Assembly: GCA_964435855.1 (NCBI GenBank)
Contig: CAYTAU010000006.1
Coordinates: 2,622 to 66,621 of the forward strand
DNA: 64,000 nucleotides
Origin: an uncultured Bacteroidales bacterium
Lineage (GTDB): Bacteria; Bacteroidota; Bacteroidia; Bacteroidales; CAYTAU01
Reading direction: 5' to 3'
The position numbers and the translations under genes were made by a program. Numbering within the stretch: the first letter of the stretch is position 1; the number at the start of each line of letters is the position of its first letter. Positions 10,486-37,091 of the stretch are shown piece by piece. The notes under the pieces were generated by a model. It made no database searches, was not told where the DNA came from, and saw nothing but the letters and a program-made list of their open reading frames with translations.

Positions 10486-10768
10486 AAGCAAAAGTCCATC
10501 TTCTTCTGACTATTAATACATTAAAACAAAAATGTTATTAAGAATCTATTGTGAATAAACATTCTTAGGTTTAAGCACATGCGATTTCTCGGGAGGAGAT
10601 TAAAGAAGGGTCAATACAAGAAATACCTTAATATAATAATTTGTCCTTATTACCCCATTTTCTTAAAAAAACTACCAAGGTTTTACAAAGGTTTCACAAT
10701 TTAAAACATTGGAATTTATTTGTAATTTGTGATTTTTTATAATACTTAAATTTTTAGATTAGCACTTG

Positions 10769-10825
10769 AAATAAACCGTTTTAGTTACTGAACTTGTCGA
10801 AGCATAAAGCGGTTTATTTTTTTTT
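10769..10825 (+). terminator. orphan intrinsic-terminator-like hairpin followed by a T9 run
   Basis: aaataaaccg(tttta)...(cataaag)cggtttattt forms a stem of about 15 bp including one G-U pair, followed by ttttttttt. It lies 285 nt after the nearest upstream stop codon. Confidence 0.45.
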
Positions 10826-10932
10826 GTCGTTTGTATATATTTTAAGAAAAATTTATTATAGATTTGTCCGATAATTAAATATAATATTATCTGTATACTT
10901 AAACATTTAATATACGTTTACTGTCGGCTCTG

Positions 10933-10946
10933 TTGACCATTATCAA
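10933..10946. promoter_or_regulatory. CRP/FNR-type box candidate upstream of the GRE gene
   Basis: TTGAC-cattATCAA matches the TTGAT-N4-ATCAA consensus at 9 of 10 positions. It is centred about 67 nt upstream of the ATG at 11007. Confidence 0.3.
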
Positions 10947-11006
10947 TCCCGGGTACTCGGGATAAAAAATTAACTGATAGATATATAAATTTAAATTTAA
11001 TATTTT

Positions 11007-13451
11007 ATGGAAGAAATTATTACTGAAGAAAAGATTGATGCGCAACAATATGAAATTGGCGTTACACAACGTACCAAACAATTAAAAAAAGACCTTATAA
11101 CAAAGGCTTGTTATGTTGGCAAATATGCTGATGGTATTTTTGTTGATGTTATCAGAGCAAAGTTGTATATGGAAAGTTATAAAGCAACCGAAGCAGATGC
11201 TCCTGTAATGAAAAGGGCAAAGGCATTAAAATATGTTTTGGGCAACCTGCCTATATCAATACTTAATAATGAAATTATTGTGGGGAATCCACATGCTGAC
11301 CCTCATGCACTTCCGATTTTTCCTGAGATAAATACAGGACTTCTAACCGAAGCTATTGACGATGGCTATGTAAGAAAGGAAGACCTGGATGATGCTAATA
11401 AATTATTAGAATACTGGGATGGAAAAACTATTGCCAGTAAAGTAGCAGAAAACATGAGCGACTGGATTAAAGATGTGGTAAATACATCCTCTTCTTTTAT
11501 CAGCACCACATGGAAAGACGGAATTCAACATTGTGTTCCAAACTGGGATTACTTGTTTGAAAATGGCACTACTGAACTTAAAAAGAAAATTCAGACAAAA
11601 TTAGATGAGGTTTTCAATGAAATTGACAGAGGTAATTCAACAAAACTATCAGAGCTTATTGAAAAACGTTACCAATATCAGGCAATGATTATTTCCCTTG
11701 AAGCTGTAGAATTATTTACAGGCAGATATGAGAAATTAGCCATTGAAATGGCAGAAAAGGAATCTGACAGTAAAAGGGCACAGGAATTATGCGATATGGC
11801 AACTATGTTGTCGAAAGTATTAAAAGAGAGACCATCAAGCCTGTATGAAGCATGTCAGTCGTTTTTCTTTTTGCACCTTATTTTAAATTGTATTGATAGC
11901 GCTGCTTTTGGCTCACTTGTACGTATAGACCAGATATTTTGGACAACATATAAGAAAAATGTTATTGACGAAAAAACAATTACCCAAAAGGATGCTCAGG
12001 AAATAATAGAGACTCTTATATTAAAGATTCAGGTACTGGGAGGTTTTTTCTCAAGAAAACGCAGACTTCATTTTGAAGGTAACGGAGCATTGCCAATCTG
12101 GAGCATTGGTGGTGTAAAGCCTGATGGAACTGATGCATGTAACGAAATGACCGATACTATTTTGATGGCAGCTCGCAGCATACGTTGCAATCAACCTACT
12201 ATTTCAATTATGTATCATAAAAATATGCGTGACTCTTCACTTACCGAAGCAATAAAAACAATTCGTGATGGATTAGGTTATCCGTCAATAACCAATACAG
12301 ATTGGATGATTCGCAGCCTGCAAAGACAGGGAATTGCAAAAGAGATTGCAAGAAATTCTGGCGTTGTAGGATGTGTTTCTGTTTGTCCTGTTGATTCGTG
12401 CAACACAACCAAAAGACTCGCTTTAACCATCATTGCTGTAAAAGCATTGGAACTTGCCTTGAATGAAGGGAAATGTCTTGTTTCCGGAAAATTGATGGGA
12501 CCTGAAGAAATTAAGGCAGATAAATTTACTACTTACGAAGAGGTGGTCGCTGCATTTGAAAAACAGTTGAAATTTTCCATCCGTACTGCTGTTAATGTAC
12601 GAAATCTTTCCAGACATTATGAAAAAACTTACAGACCAAATCCATTGGCTTCTGCTTTACATCGTTCACCACTTATAACAGGTATTGACGCAGTAAGCTA
12701 TGAAGATGAGCCAAATAATTACTGGTTGAATATGGTAGGTATGATAAACATAGTTAACTCATTAGCCGTAATAAAGAAACTTGTTTTTGAAGACAAGAAA
12801 TATAGCATGGAAAACTTTATTACTGCCATGCGTACTAATTGGGAAGGTCTTGAAGTAATGAGACAAGAAGTTATTAATAAAGTTTCAAAATTTGGTAACG
12901 ATGACCCTTATACCAATGAGATTGCAGAAGAAGTGTTCAGGATTTCTTCAAAAGTGGCTGAAGGTACTTATGATATAAATGGCGGTTATTGGTCAATATT
13001 AGCACAAAGCGTTTCGATTTATCAGGCAACTGCTGCTATGACAGGAGCTATGCCTGACGGGAAATTGTCGGGTAAACCTGTTGCTGATGGTGGTATTTCT
13101 CCCGATCATGGAACAGATAATAATGGAATTTTTTCTGTTCTTAACTCTGCCGGAAAAATCGACCATGATATTACTAAGGGATTACTTTTAAATCAATGGA
13201 TATCACCGGAAATGCTTGCAGGTGAAGAAGGAATAGAATGGATGAAGTCCATCCTTGAATTATGGCATGAGAATAATCTTTCTCAGTTACAGGTAAATGT
13301 TGTTGACCCAGAAGTTCTGAGAGATGCTCAGAAATATCCCGAAAAATATCCTCATTTAACTATCAGAATTTCAGGATATACTGCCAACTGGGTGAAACTA
13401 ACCCCTGAACTGCAGGAAATGATACTTGAAAGAACCTGTCAAAACAAATAG
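11007..13451 (+). CDS. glycyl radical enzyme (PFL2/dehydratase-like family), substrate unknown
   Basis: 814 aa. The glycyl-radical fingerprint TIRISGYTA lies 24 aa from the C-terminus. The N-terminal region is GRE-like (..ESYKATE..MKRAKALKYVL..EIIVGN). The putative thiyl loop is VVGCVSVCP (Cys456). Confidence 0.85.
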   Translation: MEEIITEEKIDAQQYEIGVTQRTKQLKKDLITKACYVGKYADGIFVDVIRAKLYMESYKATEADAPVMKRAKALKYVLGNLPISILNNEIIVGNPHADPHALPIFPEINTGLLTEAIDDGYVRKEDLDDANKLLEYWDGKTIASKVAENMSDWIKDVVNTSSSFISTTWKDGIQHCVPNWDYLFENGTTELKKKIQTKLDEVFNEIDRGNSTKLSELIEKRYQYQAMIISLEAVELFTGRYEKLAIEMAEKESDSKRAQELCDMATMLSKVLKERPSSLYEACQSFFFLHLILNCIDSAAFGSLVRIDQIFWTTYKKNVIDEKTITQKDAQEIIETLILKIQVLGGFFSRKRRLHFEGNGALPIWSIGGVKPDGTDACNEMTDTILMAARSIRCNQPTISIMYHKNMRDSSLTEAIKTIRDGLGYPSITNTDWMIRSLQRQGIAKEIARNSGVVGCVSVCPVDSCNTTKRLALTIIAVKALELALNEGKCLVSGKLMGPEEIKADKFTTYEEVVAAFEKQLKFSIRTAVNVRNLSRHYEKTYRPNPLASALHRSPLITGIDAVSYEDEPNNYWLNMVGMINIVNSLAVIKKLVFEDKKYSMENFITAMRTNWEGLEVMRQEVINKVSKFGNDDPYTNEIAEEVFRISSKVAEGTYDINGGYWSILAQSVSIYQATAAMTGAMPDGKLSGKPVADGGISPDHGTDNNGIFSVLNSAGKIDHDITKGLLLNQWISPEMLAGEEGIEWMKSILELWHENNLSQLQVNVVDPEVLRDAQKYPEKYPHLTIRISGYTANWVKLTPELQEMILERTCQNK

Positions 13452-13454
13452 TTC

Positions 13455-14366
13455 ATGGAAAAATGTTTAATTACTAGAATCGTCAGAGATTCTATACTTG
13501 ATGGCCCCGGATGCAGATATACCATATTTGTAAAAGGTTGCCATTTGCGGTGTGAGTGGTGTCATAACCCCGAAACACAATCGCTTAAACAAGAAATATT
13601 ACGATATCCTAAATTCTGTATTAAATGTGGAAATTGTGTTAAAGCAATTGGAGGCAACCCTGAAAAGGATGTTATGCCGATAATAATTGATAATACCAAA
13701 GCAGAAATGTATTATTCCTGCGTTGATAATTGTCCTACAAATGCCCTTGAATATGCGGGGAAAGAATTCTCTGTTTCACAACTTCTTGACGATATGCAAA
13801 AATACCGTACTGTTTACAATCGTACAAAAGGTGGGCTAACCATTTCAGGAGGAGAACCATTGCTTCATGAAAATTTTTCCTACAATCTGTTTGCCAAAGC
13901 AAAATCTGCGGGCTTTCATACTGCCGTAGATACCACTGCAGCATTTGAATGGGAATTGCTTGAGAAATTTTTGCCTGTAATTGATTTATGGATGATTGAC
14001 ATAAAACACTTGTATGACAGTAAACTTAAATCTGTTTTAGTTTTAGAGAACCTGTTAAAGCTTTCTTCTATTAAGGATATCAATATATGGATTAGAGTGC
14101 CTTTGATACCTGGTTATAATGATTTGGATAACTTATTAAAAGAAATGGCAGAAGTGATTAAAAAGGCAGGAAAAGCAATAAAACAGGTTTCCATTCTTCC
14201 GTTTCATCCATTGGGAGATGCAAAATACAATGCTTTATGTAGAAATTATCAATTTGCAAAACACGATGAGCTAAATACGGAAATATTAAACAAAACACGT
14301 AATAAATTTGCTGAAATACTTAAACCTGTTGAAGTAATAACAGGAATACGAATGATACACGGTTAA
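13455..14366 (+). CDS. glycyl-radical enzyme activating protein (radical SAM)
   Basis: CX3CX2C motif (CHLRCEWC), a ferredoxin-like insert (CIKCGNC...CVDNCP) and a GGEPLL motif. It starts 3 nt after the GRE stop. Confidence 0.85.
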   Translation: MEKCLITRIVRDSILDGPGCRYTIFVKGCHLRCEWCHNPETQSLKQEILRYPKFCIKCGNCVKAIGGNPEKDVMPIIIDNTKAEMYYSCVDNCPTNALEYAGKEFSVSQLLDDMQKYRTVYNRTKGGLTISGGEPLLHENFSYNLFAKAKSAGFHTAVDTTAAFEWELLEKFLPVIDLWMIDIKHLYDSKLKSVLVLENLLKLSSIKDINIWIRVPLIPGYNDLDNLLKEMAEVIKKAGKAIKQVSILPFHPLGDAKYNALCRNYQFAKHDELNTEILNKTRNKFAEILKPVEVITGIRMIHG

Positions 14367-14483
14367 TGAATATTTTAAAACAATAATAAAATGTAACAAC
14401 CATGATTGGTTTCAAACACACAAACTGATGGTTCGTATAACTTTTTATAAACATTCGCGCATTCGCTGCTAAAATAAAAATAG

Positions 14484-15761
14484 ATGAAAAAAGAAGAATT
14501 AATTTATGACTGGAACGTTCAGGGTATCTTTCCGGAAAAGCCAAAAAAAATAATTGAATTCGACGATGAAACTTTACGCGATGGCATTCAAAGTCCAACT
14601 ATTAAGGAACCGTCAATAGCAGATAAAGTGAAAATCCTTAATCTGATGGAAGAGATTGGCATTAACTCTGCTGACCTTGGTTTACCCGGTGCCGGCATCA
14701 ATGTTGTTAACGATGTTACCGTTCTTGCAAAGGAAATTGTTGACAACAAACTAAATATCACAGGTAGTTGTGCAGCAAGAACTATTAAAGATGATATTGT
14801 CCCGATAATTGATATCTCCCAAAAAACAGGACTCCCCTTGTGTGTAGATATGTTCATTGGTTCAAGCACAATCAGAAGATATGCAGAAGATTGGTCTATT
14901 GAGAGAATGTTAGCTAACACTAAAGGTGCAGTTGATTTTGCGATAAAAGAAGGTTTACCTGTAATGTATGTTACAGAAGATACAACAAGAGCACACCCTG
15001 AAACACTTAGTATTTTGTACAAAACAGCTATTGAGCATGGTGCAAAACGAATATGTGTATGTGATACAGTAGGACATGCAACTCCATACGGTATATGTAA
15101 TCTGATTAAATTTGTACAAGAAATTGTGAAAGAAACAGGTGTTGAAAATATAAAAATTGATTTTCATGGTCATAGAGACAGGGGTTTGTCATTAGCAAAT
15201 ACTATTGCAGCTATAATTGCCGGTGTTGACAGGGTACATGGTTGCGGACTGGGAATTGGTGAACGATGTGGAAACACACCAATGGATCAGCTTCTTGTAA
15301 ACTTACAATTAATGGGATGGATTGAAAAAGATTTAACAAAAATTACTCCGTATTGCAAGGTTGTTTCTGAAGCTTGTGATATTCCAATGCCATATAATTA
15401 CCCTATTTTTGGTGAAGATGCTTTCAGAACAGCAACTGGCGTTCATGCAACAGCAGTTATTAAAGCAATGAAAAAGGAAGGGGAAGCATGGTTAGCCGAT
15501 GCAGTTTATTCAGGTGTTCCTGCCAGCATGATTGGTAAAAAACAATTGATAGAGGTTGGTCCTATGAGCGGAAAATCAAATATCATATTCTGGCTGGAGC
15601 AAAGAAACATAAAAGCTGAAGAAGAGCTTATTAAAGCTATCTTTGATCATGCAAAGAAATCGAAAAAGATATTGAAGAATGAGAAGATTACCGAGATAGT
15701 AAATAATCATAATACAAATGATATAAAAAGCGAATGTTTGAAAAATCTTTCTGAAAATTAA
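14484..15761 (+). CDS. LeuA/homocitrate-synthase-like DRE-TIM metallolyase (catalytic domain only)
   Basis: DETLRDGIQ, HGHRDRGLSLAN and GIGERCGN motifs, resembling type-II 2-isopropylmalate synthase cores. At 425 aa it has no LeuA regulatory C-terminal domain. Confidence 0.7.
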   Translation: MKKEELIYDWNVQGIFPEKPKKIIEFDDETLRDGIQSPTIKEPSIADKVKILNLMEEIGINSADLGLPGAGINVVNDVTVLAKEIVDNKLNITGSCAARTIKDDIVPIIDISQKTGLPLCVDMFIGSSTIRRYAEDWSIERMLANTKGAVDFAIKEGLPVMYVTEDTTRAHPETLSILYKTAIEHGAKRICVCDTVGHATPYGICNLIKFVQEIVKETGVENIKIDFHGHRDRGLSLANTIAAIIAGVDRVHGCGLGIGERCGNTPMDQLLVNLQLMGWIEKDLTKITPYCKVVSEACDIPMPYNYPIFGEDAFRTATGVHATAVIKAMKKEGEAWLADAVYSGVPASMIGKKQLIEVGPMSGKSNIIFWLEQRNIKAEEELIKAIFDHAKKSKKILKNEKITEIVNNHNTNDIKSECLKNLSEN

Positions 15762-15869: not shown

Positions 15870-17201
15870 ATGAAAAACCTCATACTACTATCAGCAACAC
15901 TATTATTAATGCTATTTGCCAATGCACAAATAGTAAATATACCGGATGCAAATTTTAAATATAGATTGGTTAATCACATTCCTGTTATTGATACCAATGG
16001 TGATGGAGAAATTCAGGTAAGTGAGGCAGTTAATTTTACTGATTCTATAGATGTTGGAGATGGAAATATTTCTGACCTTATAGGAATAGAAGCTTTTACT
16101 CAAATTACTGGCTTGTATTGTTGGATTAATCAATTAACAAGCATAGATGTAAGTAACAATACTGCCCTTAAAGTATTACGGTGCGGTGAAAATCAATTAA
16201 TCAATATAGATATAAGCAATAATACTGATCTCATTGAGTTAGGGTGTGGTGACAATTTATCAAGCCTAGATATTAGCAACAATACTGCTCTTGAATCGTT
16301 ATGGTGTGGTGGAAATCAATTAACTACTTTGGATGTAAGCAATAATCCTTCTCTTAAATATTTACACTGTTCATACAATCCCTTAGGCAATATCAACGTA
16401 AGCAATAATACTGCTCTCATTCAGTTATATTGCGATTCTAACCTATTAACAACATTGGATATAAGCAATAATATCAATCTTACAAATTTAAGTTGTAATA
16501 AAAACCAACTATCGGTTCTTAACGTAAACAATAATACAAATCTTGAATATTTAGCATGTATATCAAATCAATTAACAAATATTGATTTTAGTAATAATGA
16601 TTCTCTCGAAACCCTGGTTTGCTCATACAATCCATTAACAACATTGGATTTAAGTTATAATAATAAACTTAGAGTAATAGCTTGTCTTTATACACAATTA
16701 CCATTAATAAATTTAAGTAATAATCCAAACCTTTATGAAGTACATCTTTACTATAATCCATTATTAAGCAGTTTAAGTATAAAAAACGGAACTAACACAA
16801 CAAATCTTGGTTTATTTATAGCCAATCATAATCCTAATTTAACCTGTATTGAAGTTGATGATTCCACATGGTCAACAGCAAACTGGACGGATATAGACCC
16901 TCAATCTTATTTTAGTGAAATTTGTATGGTAAGCACCCCAAACCAATTAAAAACACAAGAACTAAAGATAGCCCCCAACCCATTTAAAGAAAAGCTTAGT
17001 GTTTTATTGCCTGATAATACCAATGCAGATAATATTGAAATTGTACTCTACAATGTTTTAGGTAAGCAAATTAAAGTTTCAACAGAGAAAGCTAATAATG
17101 AGATTATAATTAATGGAGCTAATCTACATTCTGGGATTTACTTTGTTGAGTTAAGAGAGCAAAACAGATTAATTGGTAATGCAAAACTTATAAAACAATA
17201 A
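15870..17201 (+). CDS. leucine-rich-repeat protein with T9SS type-A C-terminal sorting domain (paralogue 1)
   Basis: Signal peptide MKNLILLSATLLLMLFANAQ, about 11 repeats of about 21-23 aa (L..L.C..NQL..LDVSNNT) and a CTD (APNPFKEKLSV...GIYFVELRE). Confidence 0.8.
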   Translation: MKNLILLSATLLLMLFANAQIVNIPDANFKYRLVNHIPVIDTNGDGEIQVSEAVNFTDSIDVGDGNISDLIGIEAFTQITGLYCWINQLTSIDVSNNTALKVLRCGENQLINIDISNNTDLIELGCGDNLSSLDISNNTALESLWCGGNQLTTLDVSNNPSLKYLHCSYNPLGNINVSNNTALIQLYCDSNLLTTLDISNNINLTNLSCNKNQLSVLNVNNNTNLEYLACISNQLTNIDFSNNDSLETLVCSYNPLTTLDLSYNNKLRVIACLYTQLPLINLSNNPNLYEVHLYYNPLLSSLSIKNGTNTTNLGLFIANHNPNLTCIEVDDSTWSTANWTDIDPQSYFSEICMVSTPNQLKTQELKIAPNPFKEKLSVLLPDNTNADNIEIVLYNVLGKQIKVSTEKANNEIIINGANLHSGIYFVELREQNRLIGNAKLIKQ

Positions 17202-17204
17202 ACT

Positions 17205-18290
17205 ATGAAAAACTTTATACTACTATCAGCAACATTATTATTAATGCTATTTGCCAATGCACAAATAGTAAATATACCTGATGCTAACTTTAAGGCAGCA
17301 TTAGTTAATCATAGTCCTGTAATTGATACTAGTGGAGATGGTGAAATTCAAATAGCAGAAGCACAAGCTACTTTGTTAATGTATCTTTCTTACAAGAACA
17401 TATCAGATTTAACTGGAATAGAGGCTTTCACCTCTCTTGATTATTTACAATGTGATGAAAATTCATTAGCTACATTAGATATAAGCAACAATACTGTTCT
17501 TACTAACTTAAATTGCGACAATAATCAATTAAGCTCATTAGATGTCAGCAACAACACAGCTCTCACTCGATTATATTGTGAAAATAATCAGTTAAGCTCT
17601 TTAGATGTTGGCAGTAATATTGCTCTTACTCATTTATGGTGTGGTGGAAATTCATTAACTACATTAGATGTTAGTAATAATACTGCTCTTACAGAATTAG
17701 ATTGTTGGGACAATAATTTAACAACAATAGATATAAGTAATAACAGTGTGCTAGAGAGACTTTGTTGTTGGGATAATCAATTAAGCACATTAGATGTTAG
17801 CAATAATACTGCTCTAACATCGCTGTTTTGTGAGAATAATCACTTAATCTCCTTAAATGTAAGAAATGGGAATAATGTTAATTTTATTGGATTTTATTCA
17901 TATGATAATCCAAACCTATATTGCATAGAGGTAGATGATTCTACATGGTCTACAGCCAACTGGACAAGTATTGATTCTTGGGCTTCTTTTAGTAATGATT
18001 GTAGTAATTTTGTTGGCACCCCAAACCAATTAAAAACACAAGAACTAAAGTTAGCACCCAACCCATTTAATGAAAAGCTTAGTGTATTGTTGCCTGATAA
18101 TACAAATGCAGATAATATTGAAATTGCACTTTACAATGTTTTAGGTAAGCAAATTAAAGTTTCAACAGAGAAAGCTAATAATGAGATTATAATTAATGGA
18201 GCTAATCTACATTCTGGGATTTACTTTGTTGAGTTAAGAGAGGGAAATAGATTAATTGGAAAGATTAAAATTGTTAAAGAATTATATTAA
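17205..18290 (+). CDS. leucine-rich-repeat protein with T9SS type-A CTD (paralogue 2)
   Basis: Its signal peptide and CTD are nearly identical to paralogue 1. It has about 7 LRR units and starts 3 nt after the preceding stop. Confidence 0.8.
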   Translation: MKNFILLSATLLLMLFANAQIVNIPDANFKAALVNHSPVIDTSGDGEIQIAEAQATLLMYLSYKNISDLTGIEAFTSLDYLQCDENSLATLDISNNTVLTNLNCDNNQLSSLDVSNNTALTRLYCENNQLSSLDVGSNIALTHLWCGGNSLTTLDVSNNTALTELDCWDNNLTTIDISNNSVLERLCCWDNQLSTLDVSNNTALTSLFCENNHLISLNVRNGNNVNFIGFYSYDNPNLYCIEVDDSTWSTANWTSIDSWASFSNDCSNFVGTPNQLKTQELKLAPNPFNEKLSVLLPDNTNADNIEIALYNVLGKQIKVSTEKANNEIIINGANLHSGIYFVELREGNRLIGKIKIVKELY

Positions 18291-18305
18291 TTTAAATTAT
18301 TTATT

Positions 18306-18506
18306 ATGAGAAAAATATGTTTTGCAATAGTTGTATTGGCGGTATGTACTGCTCTGTTATCATCTTGTAAAAAATGTCAAGAATGTACTATAACTTTTTT
18401 TGGTGTGGAAATAAGTGAGGAAGTATGTAAAGATGATTTTGATTCGAATGCTGATTATAGAGATGCAATTAAGGAAATTGAAGATGCTGGTGGCAAATGT
18501 AAATAA
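18306..18506 (+). CDS. small Cys-rich putative lipoprotein
   Basis: 66 aa with a signal peptide and LSSC lipobox. The mature part has 4 further Cys (CKKCQEC...C...C). It lies between LRR paralogues and I recognise no homology. Confidence 0.4.
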   Translation: MRKICFAIVVLAVCTALLSSCKKCQECTITFFGVEISEEVCKDDFDSNADYRDAIKEIEDAGGKCK

Positions 18507-18579
18507 TTATTACAGAGTATAAATATCACTCTTGGATGCAGTTTCTAATACAGTTTAAAAATTGTTAAAGAATAAAAGC

Positions 18580-20043
18580 ATGAAAAACCTTATACTACTA
18601 TTAGCAGTAATATTATTAATGCTATTTGCCAATGCACAAATAGTGAATATACCTGATGCTAACTTTAAAGCGGCATTAGTTAATCATTATTACCCAGATA
18701 CAATTGACACTAATGGAGATGGGGAAATACAAGTTAGTGAAGCATTGGCTACAGATACAATTGAAGTTCCTTATCAAAATATTTCTGACTTAACAGGGAT
18801 TGAAGCCTTTACTGCACTAACTTATTTAAATTGCGAGAATAATCAATTAAGCTCATTAGATATCAGCAATAATACTGCTTTAACTTCTTTATGGTGCGGT
18901 AATAATCAATTAAGCAGTTTAGATGTCAGTAATAATACTGCTCTTGAAGATTTAGATTGCTATAATAATCAATTAAGCAGTTTAGATGTCAGTAATAATT
19001 CTGTTCTAACTTATTTAGCTTGCTCTTATAATCAATTAAGCAGTTTGGATGTCAGTAATAATACTGCTCTAACTTATTTACGTTGCTATGATAATCAATT
19101 AAGCAGTTTAGATGTTAGTAATAATACTTCTCTAACTTATTTATATTGCTTTTATAATCAATTAAGTAGTTTAGATGTCAGTAATAATGATGATCTAATT
19201 AATTTACACTGCTATAATAATCAATTAAGTAGTTTAGATGTCAGTAATAATATTGCTCTTACTGTACTATACTGCTATAATAATCAAATAAGCAGTTTAG
19301 ATGTCAGTAATAATATTGCTCTTGAAGGTTTAGCTTGCTATTCAAATCAATTAAGCACTTTAGATGTCAGTAATAATATTGCTCTTGAAGGTTTAGCTTG
19401 CAATTATAATCAATTAACTTCTTTGGATGTCAGTAATAATACTGCACTTACTGGTTTAGGTTGCGATAATAATCAATTAAGCTCTTTAGATGTCAGCAAT
19501 AATACTGTGCTTGAAGGTTTAGATTGCTATAATAATCAATTAAGTAGTTTAGATGTCAGTAATAATACTGCACTAACTGATTTATATTGCTTTGGTAATC
19601 AATTAAGCAGTTTAAATGTTAAAAATGGGAATAATACGGCTATAACAGATTTTTATTTTAAAGTTTTTAATAATCCAAATTTATATTGTATAGAAGTAGA
19701 CGATTCTGCTTATTCAGCAAATAACTGGTTTAACATTGACCCTCAATCATATTTTAGTAATGATTGTCCTACAAGTATCCCAAACCAATTAAAAACACAA
19801 GAACTAAAGATAGCACCAAACCCATTCAAAGAAAAGCTTAGTGTATTATTACCTGATAACACAAATGCAGATAATATTGAAATTGCACTTTACAATGTTT
19901 TAGGTAAGCAAATTAAAGCTTCAACAGAGAAAGCTAATAATGAGATTATAATTAATGGAGCAAATCTAAAGCCCGGGATATACTTTGTTGAGTTAAGAGA
20001 TAAATACAAATTAATTGGTAATGCTAAAATTGTTAAAGAATAA
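18580..20043 (+). CDS. leucine-rich-repeat protein with T9SS type-A CTD (paralogue 3)
   Basis: Same signal peptide and CTD as paralogues 1 and 2, with 13 near-identical 21-aa units. Start taken at the ATG of MKNLILLLAV. Confidence 0.8.
   Translation: MKNLILLLAVILLMLFANAQIVNIPDANFKAALVNHYYPDTIDTNGDGEIQVSEALATDTIEVPYQNISDLTGIEAFTALTYLNCENNQLSSLDISNNTALTSLWCGNNQLSSLDVSNNTALEDLDCYNNQLSSLDVSNNSVLTYLACSYNQLSSLDVSNNTALTYLRCYDNQLSSLDVSNNTSLTYLYCFYNQLSSLDVSNNDDLINLHCYNNQLSSLDVSNNIALTVLYCYNNQISSLDVSNNIALEGLACYSNQLSTLDVSNNIALEGLACNYNQLTSLDVSNNTALTGLGCDNNQLSSLDVSNNTVLEGLDCYNNQLSSLDVSNNTALTDLYCFGNQLSSLNVKNGNNTAITDFYFKVFNNPNLYCIEVDDSAYSANNWFNIDPQSYFSNDCPTSIPNQLKTQELKIAPNPFKEKLSVLLPDNTNADNIEIALYNVLGKQIKASTEKANNEIIINGANLKPGIYFVELRDKYKLIGNAKIVKE
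18841..19620 (+). repeat. tandem 63-bp (21-aa) LRR coding repeats, about 13 units
   Basis: aatcaattaagc..ttagatgtcagtaataatactgctct.. recurs every 63 bp with high nucleotide identity. Confidence 0.85.
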
Positions 20044-31776: not shown

Positions 31777-33042
31777 ATGAAAAATTTAATTGTTATTAGT
31801 TTATTAATGCTCTTTACATATTTTGGAGCCTATGCTCAACCTTCATGTAGAGCTACTGCACAGAATTATTTAAAATATGGTGAATTAGATAATGCGAAAA
31901 AAACTATTGATAGATGCATTTTACACACCAAAACTATAAAAGACGCAAGAACATGGTGGTACAGAGGTCAAATCTATCAAGCAATAAATGCATCTGACAA
32001 TGAAAAATACAAAAATTTAGACCTTGATGCTGCTGATGTTGCTTTTTTAGCTTATAAAAAAGCTTTACTTTATAATGTTAAATTAGAAGGTTATTCAGAA
32101 CTTGATATTGAAAATAATTATGAAGACCAAATAAAGTTTATGAAATTATTTGCTGATATTAATATTGAGAAAAACTTAGTGGAAACAGAAATTTTAACAG
32201 ATATTTTAACTATCAGGTATCCTGCATTGGCAAATATTATGGTAAATAGGGGTGTTGTGCAATTTCAAAATAAAGATTTTAGTAAAGCATCCAAATCTTT
32301 TGAAGGTTCTTTATTTGTTTCAGGCATGATAGGTAAAGTTGATACTGCAATTATATATTACTCTGCTTTATCAGCAGAAAAAGCTAAAAATTACAAATTA
32401 GCTAAAGAACATTTCAGACAATTAATAAAATTAGAATACGGAGCAGATGATAAAGAAAAAGCTACAATGTATTATTTTATTGCAAATATTTTCTTATCAG
32501 AAAAAGATACCGTAAGATATATTAGAAATCTTGAAAAAGGTATTGAAAAATATCCAAATGAATCATTATTACTGGTTCAGTTAATAAACTTTAAAATTGA
32601 AGCAGGAAAAGCAGAAGAAGCTGAAGATATGATAATTAAAGCAATAGGAAGTGATCCTAACAATGCTTTATTACATTTCAATCTGGGTACTATTTATGAA
32701 GGAAAAAATGATATTGAAAATGCTATAAAATGCTATACTAAGGCAATAGAGAGTGACCCTAATCATTTATCGGCAAACTATAACCTTGGTGCTTTACATA
32801 ATAATGTTGCTGCAGAAATCCATGAAGTTGCACAAGAAGAAAAAGATAATAAAAAGTATGATGCATTAATTCTTAAATATGAAGAAACATTAAAAAAAGC
32901 TAAACCATACCTCGAAAAAGCTCATGAATTAGATCCTAATGATCTTGCCACTATGCAATCATTAAAAATTATATATTATAAGACCGGTGAAATGGAAAAA
33001 TATGAAGCTCTTGATAAGCTATTAAAAGAAAAAACGCAATGA
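31777..33042 (+). CDS. secreted TPR-repeat protein (paralogue 1 of 5)
   Basis: Signal peptide, the W.YRGQIYQAI motif and TPR-like helices (..NLGTIYEGKND..AIKCYTKAIE.DPN..). Confidence 0.7.
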   Translation: MKNLIVISLLMLFTYFGAYAQPSCRATAQNYLKYGELDNAKKTIDRCILHTKTIKDARTWWYRGQIYQAINASDNEKYKNLDLDAADVAFLAYKKALLYNVKLEGYSELDIENNYEDQIKFMKLFADINIEKNLVETEILTDILTIRYPALANIMVNRGVVQFQNKDFSKASKSFEGSLFVSGMIGKVDTAIIYYSALSAEKAKNYKLAKEHFRQLIKLEYGADDKEKATMYYFIANIFLSEKDTVRYIRNLEKGIEKYPNESLLLVQLINFKIEAGKAEEAEDMIIKAIGSDPNNALLHFNLGTIYEGKNDIENAIKCYTKAIESDPNHLSANYNLGALHNNVAAEIHEVAQEEKDNKKYDALILKYEETLKKAKPYLEKAHELDPNDLATMQSLKIIYYKTGEMEKYEALDKLLKEKTQ

Positions 33043-33069
33043 TATTATATAATAATGTAATTTATAAAA

Positions 33070-33100
33070 GGAGAAATTAAATTTTGATTTCTCCTTTTTT
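33070..33100 (+). terminator. intrinsic terminator after TPR paralogue 1
   Basis: ggagaaat-taaattttg-atttctcc (8-bp stem) followed by tttttt. Confidence 0.65.
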
Positions 33101-33145
33101 GTATGTTTTTTGTCTATAATTAAATTTTATAAAATAAAACACATT

Positions 33146-34264
33146 ATGAAAAAAATAAAAATATTTCTTATTTTCAGTATGTTATCCTCAATACTTTTTT
33201 CACAGGATTTAAATTCAGTGCTTGAAAATATTAAGAATGGGGAATTAAAAGAGGCTCAAATATCAATTGAAAAAATTGTTGCCGAAAAACCGGGAATTGA
33301 ATCTGCAAAAGCATGGTTATTTAAAGGCGCTGTATACCAATCAATATTTGAAAGCGAAGTAACAATACCAAATATTAATGATGACCCTTTAAACATAGCT
33401 TATAAAAGCTATATGCACTCAATTGAATTAGATAGCAGTAAGGAATATATGCAAGCAGCATTGAATAGCCTTGGTATTTTGGCAAATCTTTTTGTTAGAA
33501 AAGGAATTGATGAATTTAATACAGGAGAATATTCAAAATCATTACAAAGTTTTGAAAACACTATTTCAATAAACAACATGCCTGCAATAATGTATTTAGA
33601 TACAATGATAATTTACAATGCTGCAATTGCTGCCGAAAAAGCAAACGAAATAGACAAATCTAAACAGTATTATAAAGAATTAATTATTCTGGGTTTTGAA
33701 AAACCAAGAATGTATAATGAGCTCGCATTATTATTAAAAAAAGAAGGTGATATTGAGAACTATATAAAAATATTAAAAGAAGGTGTTGATATTTGTTCTA
33801 AAGATAATAATGCTTTAATAATTGAATTAGTTAATTATTATTTGTCGGTAAACGACAATGAAAATACTGTAAAGTATCTTGAAAGTGCGATGCTGCAAGA
33901 ACCCGACAATGCTAATAATTACTATGTTAGAGGCAGCTTGTTTAATCAGATTAAAGAAGCAGATAAAGCTGAAAAGTTTTATAATAAGGCTTTAAAATAT
34001 AATCCTAATCATACTGATGCACTATACAATCTTGGTGCTATGTATTATAATCAAGGAATTGATATAAGAAATGATGCCAAAACTAAAACGGAAAGAGCTG
34101 TTGCAGATGAAAAATTCGAAAAAGCTTTGCCATACTTTGAAAAAGTTCACAAATTACAGCAAACTGATATTCCAACAATGAAACTATTAATTAGTTTATA
34201 CAAGATTACCAAGCAAGAAGATAAACAAAAAGAAATAGAATTGAAACTTGAAAAACAAGAGTAA
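33146..34264 (+). CDS. secreted TPR-repeat protein (paralogue 2 of 5)
   Basis: Signal peptide MKKIKIFLIFSMLSSILFSQ, the AWLFKGAVYQSI motif and TPR helices. It has the same architecture as paralogue 1. Confidence 0.7.
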   Translation: MKKIKIFLIFSMLSSILFSQDLNSVLENIKNGELKEAQISIEKIVAEKPGIESAKAWLFKGAVYQSIFESEVTIPNINDDPLNIAYKSYMHSIELDSSKEYMQAALNSLGILANLFVRKGIDEFNTGEYSKSLQSFENTISINNMPAIMYLDTMIIYNAAIAAEKANEIDKSKQYYKELIILGFEKPRMYNELALLLKKEGDIENYIKILKEGVDICSKDNNALIIELVNYYLSVNDNENTVKYLESAMLQEPDNANNYYVRGSLFNQIKEADKAEKFYNKALKYNPNHTDALYNLGAMYYNQGIDIRNDAKTKTERAVADEKFEKALPYFEKVHKLQQTDIPTMKLLISLYKITKQEDKQKEIELKLEKQE

Positions 34265-34484
34265 GCTTGTAATACAAAGTTGTATTCATAGAGGAAATAT
34301 CCGAAAATGAATGCTTATTTGGAATTATGCCGATGCTGTTTATTATAATTTCAAAAACAACTTGCTCTGTACCTTCCTCTGAAGTTGCATTGAAATTATA
34401 TCAATGAACGCAACTCGGTATAATAATTTTTATTTTAAGTATTTATATCTATTTTTGTTTTCATAATTAAACACTTCAATTATT

Positions 34485-35759
34485 ATGAAAAAATTATTAA
34501 TTCTGATTTTAATCACAATTGTTCATTTTTCTTCCAATGCTCAAAATGAAAAAAGAAGTAAAGCTTATGAACTTTTTAAAGCAGGTGACCTTGAAAATGC
34601 AAAACGATTAATTGATGAAACCTGTTATCAATCAGAGACTAAGAATCATCCTAAGACATGGTATTTCAAAGCTATAATTTATAAAGAAATTGCAAAAAAT
34701 GATAAAGAAAACAAACTTACATATTATCCTTCTGAAGTTGCCTATAAAGCAATTATACAAAGTCAAAAATTAGATGAAAAAGACTTGTTCGTTAATGAAA
34801 ATCTTAATGAATTATTGAATTTAAGTACAATGTTTCTTAACAAAGGCTCTGTTTACTATAATGATGCAATAAAAAATGACAATGTTGCCAGTCATAAAAA
34901 AGCATTAAGAGAATTCGATAATTTTTTTATTACACTTACCAGCCTGGGACCTGATAGTGTACAGGTAATTGATTTTTTGAAAATAAACAATATGCCATAT
35001 ACTGATATTCTTGTATATGCAGGCTATGCGGCATATAAATCAAGTAATATTGAAAAATCTAAAAAATACTATGCACAATTAACTTCAATGGATAAAAACG
35101 AGTTAAGCCATGATTTAGAAGGAATTTCGTATGCATTTATTCTCTATTCAAATATTTTATCTGGAGAAGGTAAACATGAAAAAGCTATAGATTTAATTGA
35201 TAAGGCTTTAAATATATGGCCACAACATAAAAAACTTGCTATTTCGGAATTGAAAATATATCAAAATGCAAATAAAGTAGATATTTTAACTGAAAAATAT
35301 GAAAAAGCTATAGTAAATGATCCTGAAAATATTAAATTAATGATAGCTCTTGCTGAAAAATTTGATCGTTTGTATCAGGGCTACACAGAGACAAATGACG
35401 TAGTTAATGCCAATAAATATAGAGAAGAGGCTATAGAAACATACAAGAGAGCAATAAAGCTAAACCCTGCAGATAAGAATGTTTTATACAATTTACATTA
35501 TAATCTTGGTATTTTATATTACAACCCTGCAGTTGACCTTTATAAGCAATATATAAAAATTAAGGACGAAAGTGGGAGAGAGGCTATGGAAAAAAGATAT
35601 ACCCCGCTTTTTAAAGAAGCTGTTTCGGCATTTGAAGATGCTAATAAAGTTATTGATAACAATAAGGAACTGATAGATATGATGACAAGAATTTATTTAA
35701 TTCTTGGAGATATGGATAAAGCTTCTGAAATGAAAGAAAAATACAAAAGCCTTGAATAA
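34485..35759 (+). CDS. secreted TPR-repeat protein (paralogue 3 of 5)
   Basis: Signal peptide, the TWYFKAIIYKEI motif and C-terminal ..YKRAIKLNP.D..YNL.YNLGILYYN. Confidence 0.7.
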   Translation: MKKLLILILITIVHFSSNAQNEKRSKAYELFKAGDLENAKRLIDETCYQSETKNHPKTWYFKAIIYKEIAKNDKENKLTYYPSEVAYKAIIQSQKLDEKDLFVNENLNELLNLSTMFLNKGSVYYNDAIKNDNVASHKKALREFDNFFITLTSLGPDSVQVIDFLKINNMPYTDILVYAGYAAYKSSNIEKSKKYYAQLTSMDKNELSHDLEGISYAFILYSNILSGEGKHEKAIDLIDKALNIWPQHKKLAISELKIYQNANKVDILTEKYEKAIVNDPENIKLMIALAEKFDRLYQGYTETNDVVNANKYREEAIETYKRAIKLNPADKNVLYNLHYNLGILYYNPAVDLYKQYIKIKDESGREAMEKRYTPLFKEAVSAFEDANKVIDNNKELIDMMTRIYLILGDMDKASEMKEKYKSLE

Positions 35760-35768
35760 TATAATGTT

Positions 35769-37016
35769 ATGAAAAAGTTTATTATTTTTAATATACTGAT
35801 ATTTTTTGTTTTACAATTAAGTTTTTCACAATCAAAAAGTAATATAGCTGATAATTATATTAGTCAGATAGCCGGCAAATTAGATAAAGCAAAAGAAGCT
35901 ATTGACAAAGATTGTATAGATATTAAAAAAAAAGCTGAAGCTGAAACATGGTATTTAAAAGGATATATATATACCGAAATTGCTAAAACCGAAGTATATA
36001 AATCTCTGTGTAATAATCCATCATTCGATGCTTTAGATGCAATTAAGAAATGTAAACAATTAGATTCTGAAAACATATTATATTCAGAATGCCTTAATGT
36101 TCTATTTGATATAAGTACAATATTTTATGATAAAGGAATCAAGCTGTATAATTCAGGAATTAATAACAAAAACATTGAGCATTTTAAAGAAGCTTTAGCT
36201 GAATTTCAAATGTTTTTTGAAACATTAGAAACACTGGGTAATGATGAGAAAATAATTAAACATTTACTTGAATTCAACGATATAAATTCCAATTCTGTAA
36301 TAATTTATGCAGGATATTCAGCCCAATCTATTGGTGATTATAATAAAGCAAAAGAATATTATCTAAAACTTATTGATTTAAAATCGGATATTAGTACAGC
36401 AAGAAAAAAAGGACTGGCTCTTGCATATATTTATTACTCTGATATTCTGATAGCAGAAGGCAAGAGTTCGGAGGCAATTATCATTGTTGAAAGAGGAACT
36501 GAATTGTTCCTTGATAATACAGACCTAATTATTTCGTGCATTAATTTATTATTTCAGGAAAACAGGACAGATGAACTGTCAGATATCCTTGAACTTGCTA
36601 TCAAAAACAAGCCTAGAGACATAAAATTGCTTACAGTACTTGCAGGGACTTATAATAAAATATCAAAACAATATATTAAACGCGGATATCATGAAACTGC
36701 TGATAAATACAGAGCTAAATCAATAGAAACATATAATAAAGCTATTGCACTGAATCCAAGCGATAATGATTTGTTATTTAAAATAAATTATAATTGTGGT
36801 CTTTTATATTACAATAGAGGAGTACGTTTATATATTAAACACGATGAGAGCAATACTGAAGAATGGACTAAATTATTTAACTCATCACTACCATATTTAA
36901 CTAAGGCTCATAAATATCAAACATCAAATAAAAAACTTATTAACATATTAATGAAAATATATCAGTGTCTAAATGAGACTGATAAGGCAAAAGAAATGGA
37001 AGAGAAATTGTATTAA
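35769..37016 (+). CDS. secreted TPR-repeat protein (paralogue 4 of 5)
   Basis: Signal peptide and the TWYLKGYIYTEI motif. It is closest to paralogue 3 and starts 9 nt after it. Confidence 0.7.
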   Translation: MKKFIIFNILIFFVLQLSFSQSKSNIADNYISQIAGKLDKAKEAIDKDCIDIKKKAEAETWYLKGYIYTEIAKTEVYKSLCNNPSFDALDAIKKCKQLDSENILYSECLNVLFDISTIFYDKGIKLYNSGINNKNIEHFKEALAEFQMFFETLETLGNDEKIIKHLLEFNDINSNSVIIYAGYSAQSIGDYNKAKEYYLKLIDLKSDISTARKKGLALAYIYYSDILIAEGKSSEAIIIVERGTELFLDNTDLIISCINLLFQENRTDELSDILELAIKNKPRDIKLLTVLAGTYNKISKQYIKRGYHETADKYRAKSIETYNKAIALNPSDNDLLFKINYNCGLLYYNRGVRLYIKHDESNTEEWTKLFNSSLPYLTKAHKYQTSNKKLINILMKIYQCLNETDKAKEMEEKLY

Positions 37017-37091
37017 TTAAAAAAAACTTGTTTAATTTACATCATAAATTTAATTAAATATGTAATATTATAGCATAAATTAGCGGAAGGA

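Follow-up and report, generated by a model that had tools for sequence, protein, structure and literature searches.

A rare X-succinate-synthase-like glycyl-radical enzyme linked to a LeuA-type synthase in an uncultured Bacteroidales bacterium

Glycyl-radical enzymes (GREs) catalyse some of the hardest anaerobic chemistry. Which class does such an enzyme belong to, and what might it do, when its active-site loop reads Gly-Cys-Val-Ser and its gene is followed by that of a Claisen-condensing enzyme? The question is raised by a cassette of three genes on a 64,000-nucleotide stretch of an uncultured Bacteroidales bacterium (contig CAYTAU010000006.1, positions 2,622 to 66,621 of the forward strand), the whole of which is referred to below as the window. 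An initial annotation had described a GRE with Cys456 and Gly790, its activase and a LeuA-like enzyme here; open reading frame (ORF) calls, Pfam searches and motif positions bear out all three genes, both residues and the associated motifs. The cassette is a self-contained module of a GRE, a radical-SAM activase and a short synthase of the LeuA/CimA type, encoded by three adjoining ORFs:

11007..13451, plus strand: GRE catalytic subunit, 814 aa, X-succinate-synthase-like, here called the GCVS family (Pfam, PDB matches, AlphaFold2, Foldseek)
13455..14366, plus strand: radical-SAM GRE-activating enzyme, 303 aa (TIGR02494 and Pfam)
14484..15761, plus strand: short LeuA-type 2-alkylmalate synthase of the DRE-TIM group, 425 aa, with no regulatory domain (Pfam HMGL-like)

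The activase gene begins 3 nt after the GRE stop codon and is followed, after a spacer of 117 nt, by the synthase gene.

Class and active site of the glycyl-radical enzyme

The first protein matches the Pfam domains PFL-like (PF02901, E 1.7e-139) and Gly_radical (PF01228, E 9.1e-27), and the E-values of the Pfam matches put the domain assignments of the cassette far beyond chance. The superfamily fingerprint RVxG[FWY] is read as RISGY, with Gly790 as its glycine, which makes the protein a member of the superfamily. As had been proposed, it is a true GRE that does not carry the C-x-E motif, Ser458 being found where the Glu would stand. Its two radical-bearing loops are as follows:

12363..12416, plus strand: Cys loop VVGCVSVCPVDSCNTTKR, with Cys456 at 12372-12374, Gly455 (equivalent to Leu492 of benzylsuccinate synthase, BSS) and Arg470 at 12414-12416 (alignments to TutD and MasD)
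13359..13388, plus strand: Gly loop TIRISGYTAN, with the radical-bearing Gly790 at 13374-13376 (aligns with BSS Gly829)

Gly455, Cys456, Ser458 and Arg470 are invariant in the 16 family sequences over which invariance of GRE site residues was scored. Cys456 aligns with BSS Cys493 and with the corresponding Cys of (1-methylalkyl)succinate synthase (MASS), and is invariant across 43 diverse GREs. In the AlphaFold2 model of the GRE, built from a 43-sequence alignment (pLDDT 90.8, pTM 0.91), Cys456 and Gly790 are found where two beta-hairpins turn (strands 451-454/458-461 for the former, 785-787/792-794 for the latter). Alignment does not move the catalytic Cys to a normal C-x-E motif elsewhere in the protein. 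By alignment and predicted structure, Cys456 is the catalytic Cys and would carry the thiyl radical, in line with the original proposal.

PDB matches, fold comparison and tree all point to X-succinate synthases (XSS). The best sequence matches in the PDB were MasD (E 4e-119) and TutD/BssA (E 1.6e-115), followed by glycerol dehydratase (E 6.5e-98); pyruvate formate-lyase (PFL) matched with an E-value of 1e-21 and over the C-terminal ~190 residues of the GRE only. The top four Foldseek hits were alpha subunits of BSS and MASS (TM 0.92-0.94, rmsd 2.0-2.4 Å), with BSS alpha in first place (TM 0.94, rmsd 2.0 Å, 31% identity) and MasD in fourth (TM 0.92), whereas eliminases ranked behind them (TM 0.87-0.90). 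In a neighbour-joining tree of 43 sequences, the GCVS family is sister to a clade containing the XSS-like “LCMSP” and other C-x-S proteins, and all C-x-E enzymes are well apart from it. Because of the PDB ranking, the fold ranking and the tree position, we read G-C-V-S, which corresponds to L-C-M-S in XSS, as an XSS-type C-x-S loop and not as a degenerate PFL loop. In the initial annotation, GCVS was taken to match none of the known classes cleanly and to be a PFL-like loop short of its first Cys. This part of it has to be given up: PDB matches, fold, tree, C-x-S loop and the fumarate residues described below all place the protein with XSS, a class named there only for its lack of the Glu.

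Nevertheless, the enzyme stands apart from every characterised GRE. Its identity to any solved or characterised member is at most ~31-32% (30-32% to XSS), well short of the 45-50% at which it would have been grouped with one of them in the initial annotation, and it scores below the curated cut-off of every NCBIfam model that it matches. The best of these is TIGR01774 (PFL2-3), with 465 bits against a cut-off of 678; TIGR01255 (PFL) scores 109 bits against 994. Two other assignments were considered and rejected, namely a PFL-like reading of the loop, where the first Cys of the pair is Gly455 and similarity to PFL is remote, and a C-x-E eliminase or isomerase, where the invariant Ser458 and the separate clade disagree. 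As judged from sequence and predicted structure, the GCVS family is a rare lineage without a name of its own, sister to the X-succinate synthases.

The GCVS enzyme apparently functions without further subunits. XSS have accessory subunits of the HiPIP-like [4Fe-4S] type; neither next to the GRE in the window nor in the genes called at related loci did we find a small Cys-rich ORF that could encode one, though an unlinked gene may lie at a distance. Two small candidate ORFs were dismissed: a 61-aa ORF following a GRE of the third tier has no Cys, and a 62-aa ORF preceding the more distant GRE P0026 is a C-terminal fragment of an activase. The catalytic loop itself carries extra Cys residues after Cys456 (window positions 12381-12401): Cys460 is present in 15 of the 16 family members and Cys465 in 11, some members have a Cys459-Cys460 pair, and these extra positions are not conserved in relatives of 41-45% identity.

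We mapped the active site with a HMMER pairwise alignment to TutD, in which the sequence index plus one gives the identities of all 22 literature-numbered BSS residues. In addition to the two loops, the following positions line the site:

11529..11531, plus strand: His175, invariant, at the fumarate contact formed by BSS Ser199 and MASS Tyr194 (alignment; role from PMC4848970, PMC12358834)
12060..12071, plus strand: Arg352-Arg353-Leu354-His355, of which Arg352 (BSS Tyr381) and His355 (BSS Ile384) are invariant (alignment)
12723..12731, plus strand: Trp573-x-Asn575, equivalent to BSS Trp613 and Asn615, which form hydrogen bonds with fumarate (alignment)
13005..13007, plus strand: Gln667, equivalent to BSS Gln707, which forms a hydrogen bond with fumarate (alignment)

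Fumarate is contacted in BSS and MASS by an Arg salt bridge, by an oxyanion hole in the Cys loop and by hydrogen bonds from Tyr197, Ser199, Trp613, Asn615 and Gln707 (PMC4848970, PMC12358834). Four of these residues are kept and invariant in the GCVS family, with Arg470 for BSS Arg508 (MASS Arg492), Trp573 for Trp613, Asn575 for Asn615 and Gln667 for Gln707, as are both radical residues, Cys456 for Cys493 and Gly790 for Gly829. Against MasD, Arg470 falls exactly on the MASS Arg; against TutD, it is shifted by one residue, with an indel alongside. The shared Cys loop suggests that an oxyanion hole would form here as well. From these alignments, the C4-dicarboxylate clamp of XSS is predicted to be retained, consisting of the C-x-S Cys loop together with Arg470, Trp573, Asn575 and Gln667.

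The remainder of the pocket differs. Invariant replacements are His355 for Ile384, Gly455 for Leu492, His175 for Ser199 and Arg352 for Tyr381; further changes are Ile165 for Glu189 and Ile173 for Tyr197, and the equivalents of Leu391, Val709 and Leu711 are still hydrophobic. Tyr381 presumably belongs to the hydrocarbon pocket of BSS, although we found no mention of it in the BSS paper. Ile384 is a contact of the toluene or benzyl group (PMC4848970). The GCVS enzyme therefore lacks the hydrophobic hydrocarbon pocket of XSS, which is relined with His, Arg and Gly, and we infer that its substrate would be an organic acid and not a hydrocarbon. All eight full cassettes share the same pocket residues. 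When the best-scoring relatives from a library of 1.84 billion proteins were compared, the R...W-N...Q signature occurred together with His175, Arg352 and His355 in the GCVS family only. We detected no co-variation between the GRE pocket and the synthase pocket, since the former is invariant.

The conserved cassette and its synthase

The family is rare and widely scattered. A word-indexed search found ~20 clusters of GRE relatives at 63-72% identity in five or more phyla, with metagenome-assembled genomes (MAGs) of Bacteroidales/Bacteroidota, Candidatus Acetothermia, Victivallales, Oligoflexales and Thermotogae as hosts; a second tier follows at 41-45% identity, and all else is at or below 36%. 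An exhaustive profile search of 1.84 billion representatives returned two 50%-identity representatives of the family (1450 and 1197 bits), the next match having at most 809 bits. A metagenome-wide locus scan added one family locus, a duplicate of L006; its other matches were GREs of 28-30% identity without a LeuA-like gene. Public names of family members are all generic (“hypothetical”, “PFL family” or “PFL/glycerol dehydratase family”).

The LeuA-like gene proved to be a conserved neighbour, as the initial annotation had supposed. It adjoins the GRE-activase pair in all nine loci with readable flanks (the window, L002, L004, L005, L006, which is the same as L007, L008 and L020, L009, L013, L029 and L034), and accession numbering indicates the same adjacency in two further Bacteroidota MAGs. 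The activase is a conserved neighbour in every locus that reaches beyond the GRE. Most loci read synthase-GRE-activase; the Bacteroidota copies have the synthase last (GRE-activase-synthase), and the synthase stop codon overlaps the GRE start codon in L009 and L034. The linkage spans at least four named phyla and holds down to the tier of 41-45% identity; it is absent from all relatives at or below 36%. Some public contigs seemingly lack the synthase because assemblies break at an AT-rich repeat in the spacer. In L029 (2502-2748), the spacer between synthase and GRE contains a duplicated AT-rich repeat (GTATTTGTTTAGGATTT...GGATTTGCCCTT), and three independent assemblies (L030, L031 and L032) end ~108 nt upstream of the GRE at a repeat of this type. 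In the closest Bacteroidales relative (L013, 13411-13791), a gene of the PDDEXK_3 nuclease family lies between activase and LeuA-like gene, where the window has its 117-nt spacer.

Everything around the cassette changes from locus to locus. The flanks of other loci are unrelated housekeeping genes (UvrAB, Mfd, RecX, S2/EF-Ts, ACC, CysRS and RNase Y), and those in the window include LpxK, GyrA, ClpB and a cargo protein of the type IX secretion system (T9SS). Across the scanned loci we found no conserved fourth gene, be it a dehydrogenase, a formate transporter, a CoA-transferase or LeuB/LeuCD. The cassette is not accompanied by small Fe-S subunit genes, transporters, regulators or riboswitches. 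Horizontal transfer of the cassette is suggested by its changing flanks together with the high identity between phyla. Its GC and GC3 are only mildly above those of host genes, and base composition is not decisive as a sign of such transfer.

Features of the two partner genes, and of the region upstream of the GRE, are given below.

13539..13562, plus strand: CX3CX2C motif CHLRCEWC of the activase (sequence motif)
13611..13751, plus strand: Cys-rich ferredoxin-like auxiliary Fe-S insert of the activase (sequence)
14562..14585, plus strand: synthase motif DDETLRDG
15165..15185, plus strand: synthase motif HGHRDRG
15252..15275, plus strand: synthase motif GIGERCGN
15417..15449, plus strand: synthase motif DAFRTATGVHA
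10486..11006, no strand: upstream intergenic region of 521 nt, an AT-rich and unusually long non-coding stretch 5' of the GRE

The activase scores 263 bits with TIGR02494 (GRE-activating protein; cut-off 174) and contains the Pfam domains Fer4_12, Radical_SAM and Fer4. It has the sequence features of an enzyme that would install the radical on Gly790.

The synthase has a single Pfam match, HMGL-like (PF00682, E 2e-39), with no LeuA_dimer regulatory domain detected by Pfam in its 425 residues. Its closest NCBIfam models are isopropylmalate synthase (IPMS) and homocitrate synthase (HCS), all below cut-off (the best, NF002085, with 203 bits against 517), and its best PDB matches are likewise IPMS and HCS. 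It belongs to a large family of “LeuA family proteins” of ~400-420 aa, which gave more than 8000 matches; identity is 58-64% for hundreds of these. We scanned two contexts of such relatives where the gene is not linked to a GRE, and there it adjoins LeuB (NF002898, 3-isopropylmalate dehydrogenase, 414 and 445 bits; cut-off 393), LeuC (TIGR02083, 611.6 bits; cut-off 610.65) and LeuD. On this ground we regard the synthase as probably a genuine 2-oxoacid chain-elongation enzyme of the IPMS or citramalate-synthase type. No LeuB or LeuCD lies beside any GRE-linked copy.

Catalytic motifs are common to linked and non-linked synthases. They include DAFRTATGVHA, in which, for linked and leu-operon members alike, Thr takes the place of the His, a proposed catalytic residue, in the AFxHxSGIH of solved IPMS and HCS. 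The HGHRDRG motif of the window copy has Arg instead of the usual Asn of HxHNDxG. The short-LeuA family (P0102-P0220) may have a modified catalytic arrangement, and this would be family-wide, because the motif deviations are also seen in members in leuBCD operons. Two pocket positions separate the groups: position 95 is Ser, Ala or Gly in GRE-linked copies and Asn in 94% of the non-linked ones, and position 122 is His, Asp or Gln in linked copies and Cys in the others. By alignment they correspond to His72 and Asp92 of TtHCS, which we assume to bind substrate, a role for which a literature search found no confirmation. Because of these differences from leu-operon copies, the 2-oxoacid used by linked synthases is uncertain. 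In an unrooted neighbour-joining tree without outgroup, the linked synthases are not demonstrably monophyletic, and one or several origins both fit.

The upstream region is presumed to hold the promoter and leader of the cassette. It contains no ORFs with homologues; no Rfam family matched it at the gathering threshold, and none even at E<=1 that would point to a riboswitch or leader RNA; sigma-70-like matches were not above shuffled expectation, and promoter and terminator scans gave no convincing signal.

Elsewhere in the window, two arrays of paralogues were observed. Three tandem leucine-rich-repeat genes (15870-20043; 443, 361 and 493 aa), with near-identical signal peptides and T9SS C-terminal sorting domains, look like a recent tandem duplication of surface or secreted proteins. 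Five consecutive tetratricopeptide-repeat paralogues (31777-38246; 384-424 aa, plus strand) come immediately after gyrA.

Candidate reactions and competing explanations

The GCVS enzyme probably does radical C-C chemistry that has not yet been described. The reading that we favour, with a probability of about 0.5, is that it is a single-subunit XSS-like GRE carrying out radical C-C scission or rearrangement on a 2-substituted malate supplied by the adjacent synthase. The synthase would condense acetyl-CoA with a 2-oxoacid to a 2-substituted malate (2-hydroxy-2-alkylsuccinate), the most likely GRE substrate; this product is the 2-hydroxy analogue of an XSS product and would therefore bind the GRE as benzylsuccinate binds BSS. 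The Cys456 thiyl radical would take a hydrogen atom from C3 or from the carbon bound to C2. Beta-scission of the resulting substrate radical, the reverse of the XSS addition step, would come next, and the fragments would separate or re-add elsewhere. The initial annotation had suggested acyl-CoA or 2-oxoacid chemistry for the locus. This holds insofar as the neighbour is a Claisen enzyme of the LeuA type; PFL-type thioester chemistry in the GRE is unlikely.

Three outcomes can be envisaged, in order of preference. The first would be a carbon-skeleton rearrangement, for example of citramalate to 2-hydroxyglutarate via enolpyruvate and a carboxymethyl radical or, in its other form, of a 2-substituted to a 3-substituted malate via hydroxyfumarate, as from citrate to isocitrate. 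The second would be formation of formate and a 3-oxoacid, in which a CO2 radical anion leaves and is quenched to formate, with PFL as precedent. The third would release R-H and oxaloacetate. By a rough estimate from formation energies, the formate and R-H outcomes for citramalate are near zero free energy, and the preceding thioester hydrolysis would drive them. The nearest outgroups of the family are found in di- or tricarboxylate loci, one with PrpF, a TRAP dicarboxylate transporter and PrpR, another with TctABC, an enolase-superfamily enzyme and a 2-hydroxyacid dehydrogenase.

In its boldest form, the proposal would make GCVS enzymes the first glycyl-radical carbon-skeleton mutases or organic-acid C-C lyases, a B12-independent counterpart of glutamate mutase and 2-methyleneglutarate mutase. 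We consider this version improbable, though worth stating for what would follow from it. A 2-substituted malate would give a carbon radical and enol-pyruvate or hydroxyfumarate, and the radical would re-add at a different position. Conversion of citramalate to 2-hydroxyglutarate would then amount to a two-enzyme, CO2-neutral route from pyruvate and acetyl-CoA towards 2-oxoglutarate, and citrate could become isocitrate without aconitase. Were the R-H and oxaloacetate variant true, it would be a biological source of small alkanes.

Several points weigh against the favoured scission or rearrangement of a synthase-made malate. In a family with no characterised close homologue, both substrate and reaction are deduced, and so is even the sequence in which the two enzymes act. 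The pocket map depends on pairwise HMMER alignments and a predicted model, with Arg470 offset in the TutD alignment, and conservation of the fumarate site would equally fit fumarate itself as co-substrate. Kinetically, beta-scission is demanding where an unstabilised alkyl radical has to leave. A rearranged product would need a 2-hydroxyglutarate, isocitrate or isopropylmalate dehydrogenase, and none is ever part of the cassette; the lack of a conserved dehydrogenase mildly disfavours the rearrangement outcome. Finally, synthase positions 95 and 122 differ from those of leu-operon copies, so the product may be no simple alkylmalate.

An alternative is that the GRE acts first, as a fumarate hydroalkylase adding a polar C-H donor (C3 of pyruvate or another 2-oxoacid, or acetate), after which the LeuA-like enzyme would condense acetyl-CoA onto the resulting oxo-polycarboxylate to give an unusual acid with three or four carboxyl groups, for instance a precursor of a cofactor or metallophore. 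The BSS-type fumarate site is complete here, more so than in MASS, where Glu replaces Gln707 and Thr replaces Asn615, and the cationic or polar Arg352, His355 and His175 could hold an alpha-keto-carboxylate donor. A smaller residue at synthase position 95 and a polar one at 122, which we take to be the distal-carboxylate positions of HCS, would fit a larger anionic 2-oxoacid. On the other side, no such polycarboxylate pathway is known, tailoring, export and regulatory genes are not conserved around the cassette, and the synthase is 58-64% identical to relatives in two leu-operon contexts that presumably use small hydrophobic 2-oxoacids; altogether we find this order of events doubtful. A looser relationship, in which the synthase is an ordinary enzyme of leucine or isoleucine synthesis and the GRE has an unrelated role or one connected through precursor supply or co-regulation, is harder still to accept. 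It would explain why the synthase has all the catalytic motifs of leu-operon members, why the linked copies are not demonstrably monophyletic and why no third pathway gene is conserved. However, adjacency is kept across at least four named phyla, in two gene orders and over GRE divergence to 41-45% identity while other neighbours change; start and stop codons overlap in some loci; LeuB and LeuCD never adjoin the GRE-linked copies; and the pocket positions of those copies are consistently unlike the leu-operon ones.

The remaining explanations would assign the enzyme to an established class. A 2-oxoacid formate-lyase like PFL or TdcE, interconverting 2-oxoacid plus CoA with acyl-CoA plus formate and feeding the Claisen enzyme, is very unlikely. 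The C-V-S sequence from the catalytic Cys does resemble C-C-V-S of PFL, the neighbouring enzyme uses acyl-CoA and 2-oxoacids, and PFL/TdcE running in reverse can reportedly make 2-oxobutyrate in E. coli; yet the match to PFL is confined to the C-terminal ~190 residues (E 1e-21, against 1e-119 for XSS), the TIGR01255 score of 109 bits is far from the cut-off of 994, and the first Cys of the pair is the invariant Gly455. In the parts of a June 2026 review that bear on this point, only PFL and TdcE have and need two Cys (PMC13450708). A canonical XSS, adding an alkane or alkylarene to fumarate, would account for the closest sequence and structure relatives and for the conserved fumarate site, but it hardly merits belief at 30-32% identity, with a hydrocarbon pocket relined with Arg and His, with housekeeping flanks in place of beta-oxidation genes of the bbs/ass type, and with no beta/gamma (or delta) Fe-S subunits found beside the GRE, which all characterised XSS have according to the XSS section of the same review (PMC13450708). 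Equally hard to credit is a member of the PFL2/glycerol-dehydratase family, whether a dehydratase or lyase catalysing 1,2-elimination or an isomerase with C-x-E; TIGR01774 is the best NCBIfam match, and the public name “PFL/glycerol dehydratase family” alludes to this group. The 465 bits fall short of the cut-off, 678, the tree puts the GCVS proteins apart from the clade of C-x-E enzymes, and the Glu, kept in all eliminases and isomerases in the review's treatment of these classes (PMC13450708), is here the invariant Ser458.

Comparison with known systems

The class overview of the June 2026 review lists seven GRE classes and describes whole clades as still untested (PMC13450708). Neither there, nor in its XSS and isomerase sections, nor by term searches of it, did we find a described equivalent of the GCVS cassette (PMC13450708). 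Our literature searches for GREs linked to LeuA-type enzymes, citramalate, isopropylmalate, alkylmalates, itaconate or mutase chemistry returned nothing relevant. The GCVS family lacks a defining feature of each class to which it might be assigned: the pocket and accessory subunits of XSS, the C-x-E motif of eliminases and isomerases, and the Cys-Cys pair of PFL. The GRE would work most like XSS, as an uncharacterised XSS-like subfamily with a distinctive, conserved partner.

Its likeness to XSS (BssA/TutD and MasD) lies in the best sequence and fold scores (E 1e-115 to 1e-119; TM 0.92-0.94), a single catalytic Cys in a C-x-S loop without Glu, the dicarboxylate clamp and a dedicated activase with an auxiliary Fe-S insert. 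In contrast to XSS, the GCVS protein is ~45-65 residues shorter than BssA/TutD (878 aa) and MasD (858 aa), has no linked beta, gamma or delta subunits, carries Arg352, His355, His175 and Gly455 in its pocket, reads SGYTANW in its Gly loop and is accompanied by a LeuA-type synthase instead of a succinyl-CoA transferase or beta-oxidation genes; moreover, its hosts are not known hydrocarbon degraders. In the review's XSS section, the XSS of known subunit composition (BSS and MASS) are multisubunit, and all XSS listed act on hydrocarbons (PMC13450708).

A further group is formed by the uncharacterised non-hydrocarbon C-x-S GREs P0025-P0028, P0231 and P0232, which share the superclade, the Arg/Trp/Asn/Gln signature and the single large subunit. 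Their gene surroundings suggest a role in the metabolism of di- or tricarboxylates, with transporters of the TRAP or Tct kind, PrpF and an enolase-superfamily enzyme. They differ in being 33-36% identical, in lacking His175, Arg352 and His355 as well as a linked LeuA-like gene, and in occupying catabolic-looking loci with transporters and regulators. The P0025 locus (L010, L011 and L012) encodes a C-x-S GRE 34% identical to that of the window, without a LeuA partner and with a divergently transcribed activase. Its neighbours are a PrpF-family isomerase, a PNPOx-like protein, DUF4125, TRAP DctPQM, a PrpR-type sigma-54 activator and a Cys-rich 69-aa zinc-ribbon ORF. It looks like a dicarboxylate catabolic locus, and the pairing of PrpF with a mutase-like enzyme would recall, by analogy, nicotinate fermentation. 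The locus of the nearest outgroup (P0231, 36% identical, in L035) comprises an RpiR-type regulator, GRE, activase, an enolase-superfamily (MR/MLE) enzyme, TctCBA and a 2-hydroxyacid dehydrogenase; P0231 is apparently an XSS-like GRE acting on an imported polycarboxylate.

Similarity to the other GRE classes is more general. PFL2/glycerol dehydratase (TIGR01774) and the C-x-E isomerases (HplG, YbiW, PflD) have the same ten-stranded barrel (TM ~0.87-0.90) and the same type of activase, but they form a separate clade and have the Glu of C-x-E where the GCVS enzyme has Ser458. PFL and TdcE share the glycyl-radical domain and the Val-Ser following the catalytic Cys; release of a formate radical would be a further common step if the GCVS enzyme cleaves the C1-C2 bond of an alkylmalate. 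They differ in the Cys-Cys pair, replaced here by Gly455-Cys456, and their similarity is remote. On the side of the partner enzyme, the synthase has the DRE-TIM barrel, the Arg-Asp and HxH motifs, GERxGN and the C-terminal subdomains of the LeuA Claisen enzymes (2-isopropylmalate, citramalate, homocitrate and Re-citrate synthases), from which it differs by the lack of LeuA_dimer, by scores below every matched NCBIfam cut-off and by Thr in place of the His of AFxHxSGIH. A literature search on Re-citrate synthase yielded physiological papers only.

The most distant comparison is with B12-dependent carbon-skeleton mutases (glutamate and 2-methyleneglutarate mutase). These have no sequence or cofactor relationship to the GCVS enzyme, and would resemble it by analogy only, in the formation of a carbon radical and an acrylate- or fumarate-type alkene followed by re-addition. 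GREs mirror B12 enzymes in diol dehydration and ribonucleotide reduction; to our knowledge, no GRE mutase of the carbon-skeleton kind has been described. In the GCVS clade, the XSS equipment for making C-C bonds by radical chemistry on a fumarate-type acceptor is kept, minus the accessory subunits and the hydrocarbon pocket, and it is tied to a Claisen enzyme of central metabolism, the two enzymes together making up a portable module. Even if the reaction should prove mundane, the cassette provides a concrete substrate hypothesis, the product of the synthase. If the proposed chemistry is true, it could supply the missing GRE analogue of the B12-dependent mutases in a single-subunit, potentially engineerable radical enzyme that makes or breaks C-C bonds, and XSS-type catalysis would extend from hydrocarbon degradation into organic-acid or central metabolism.

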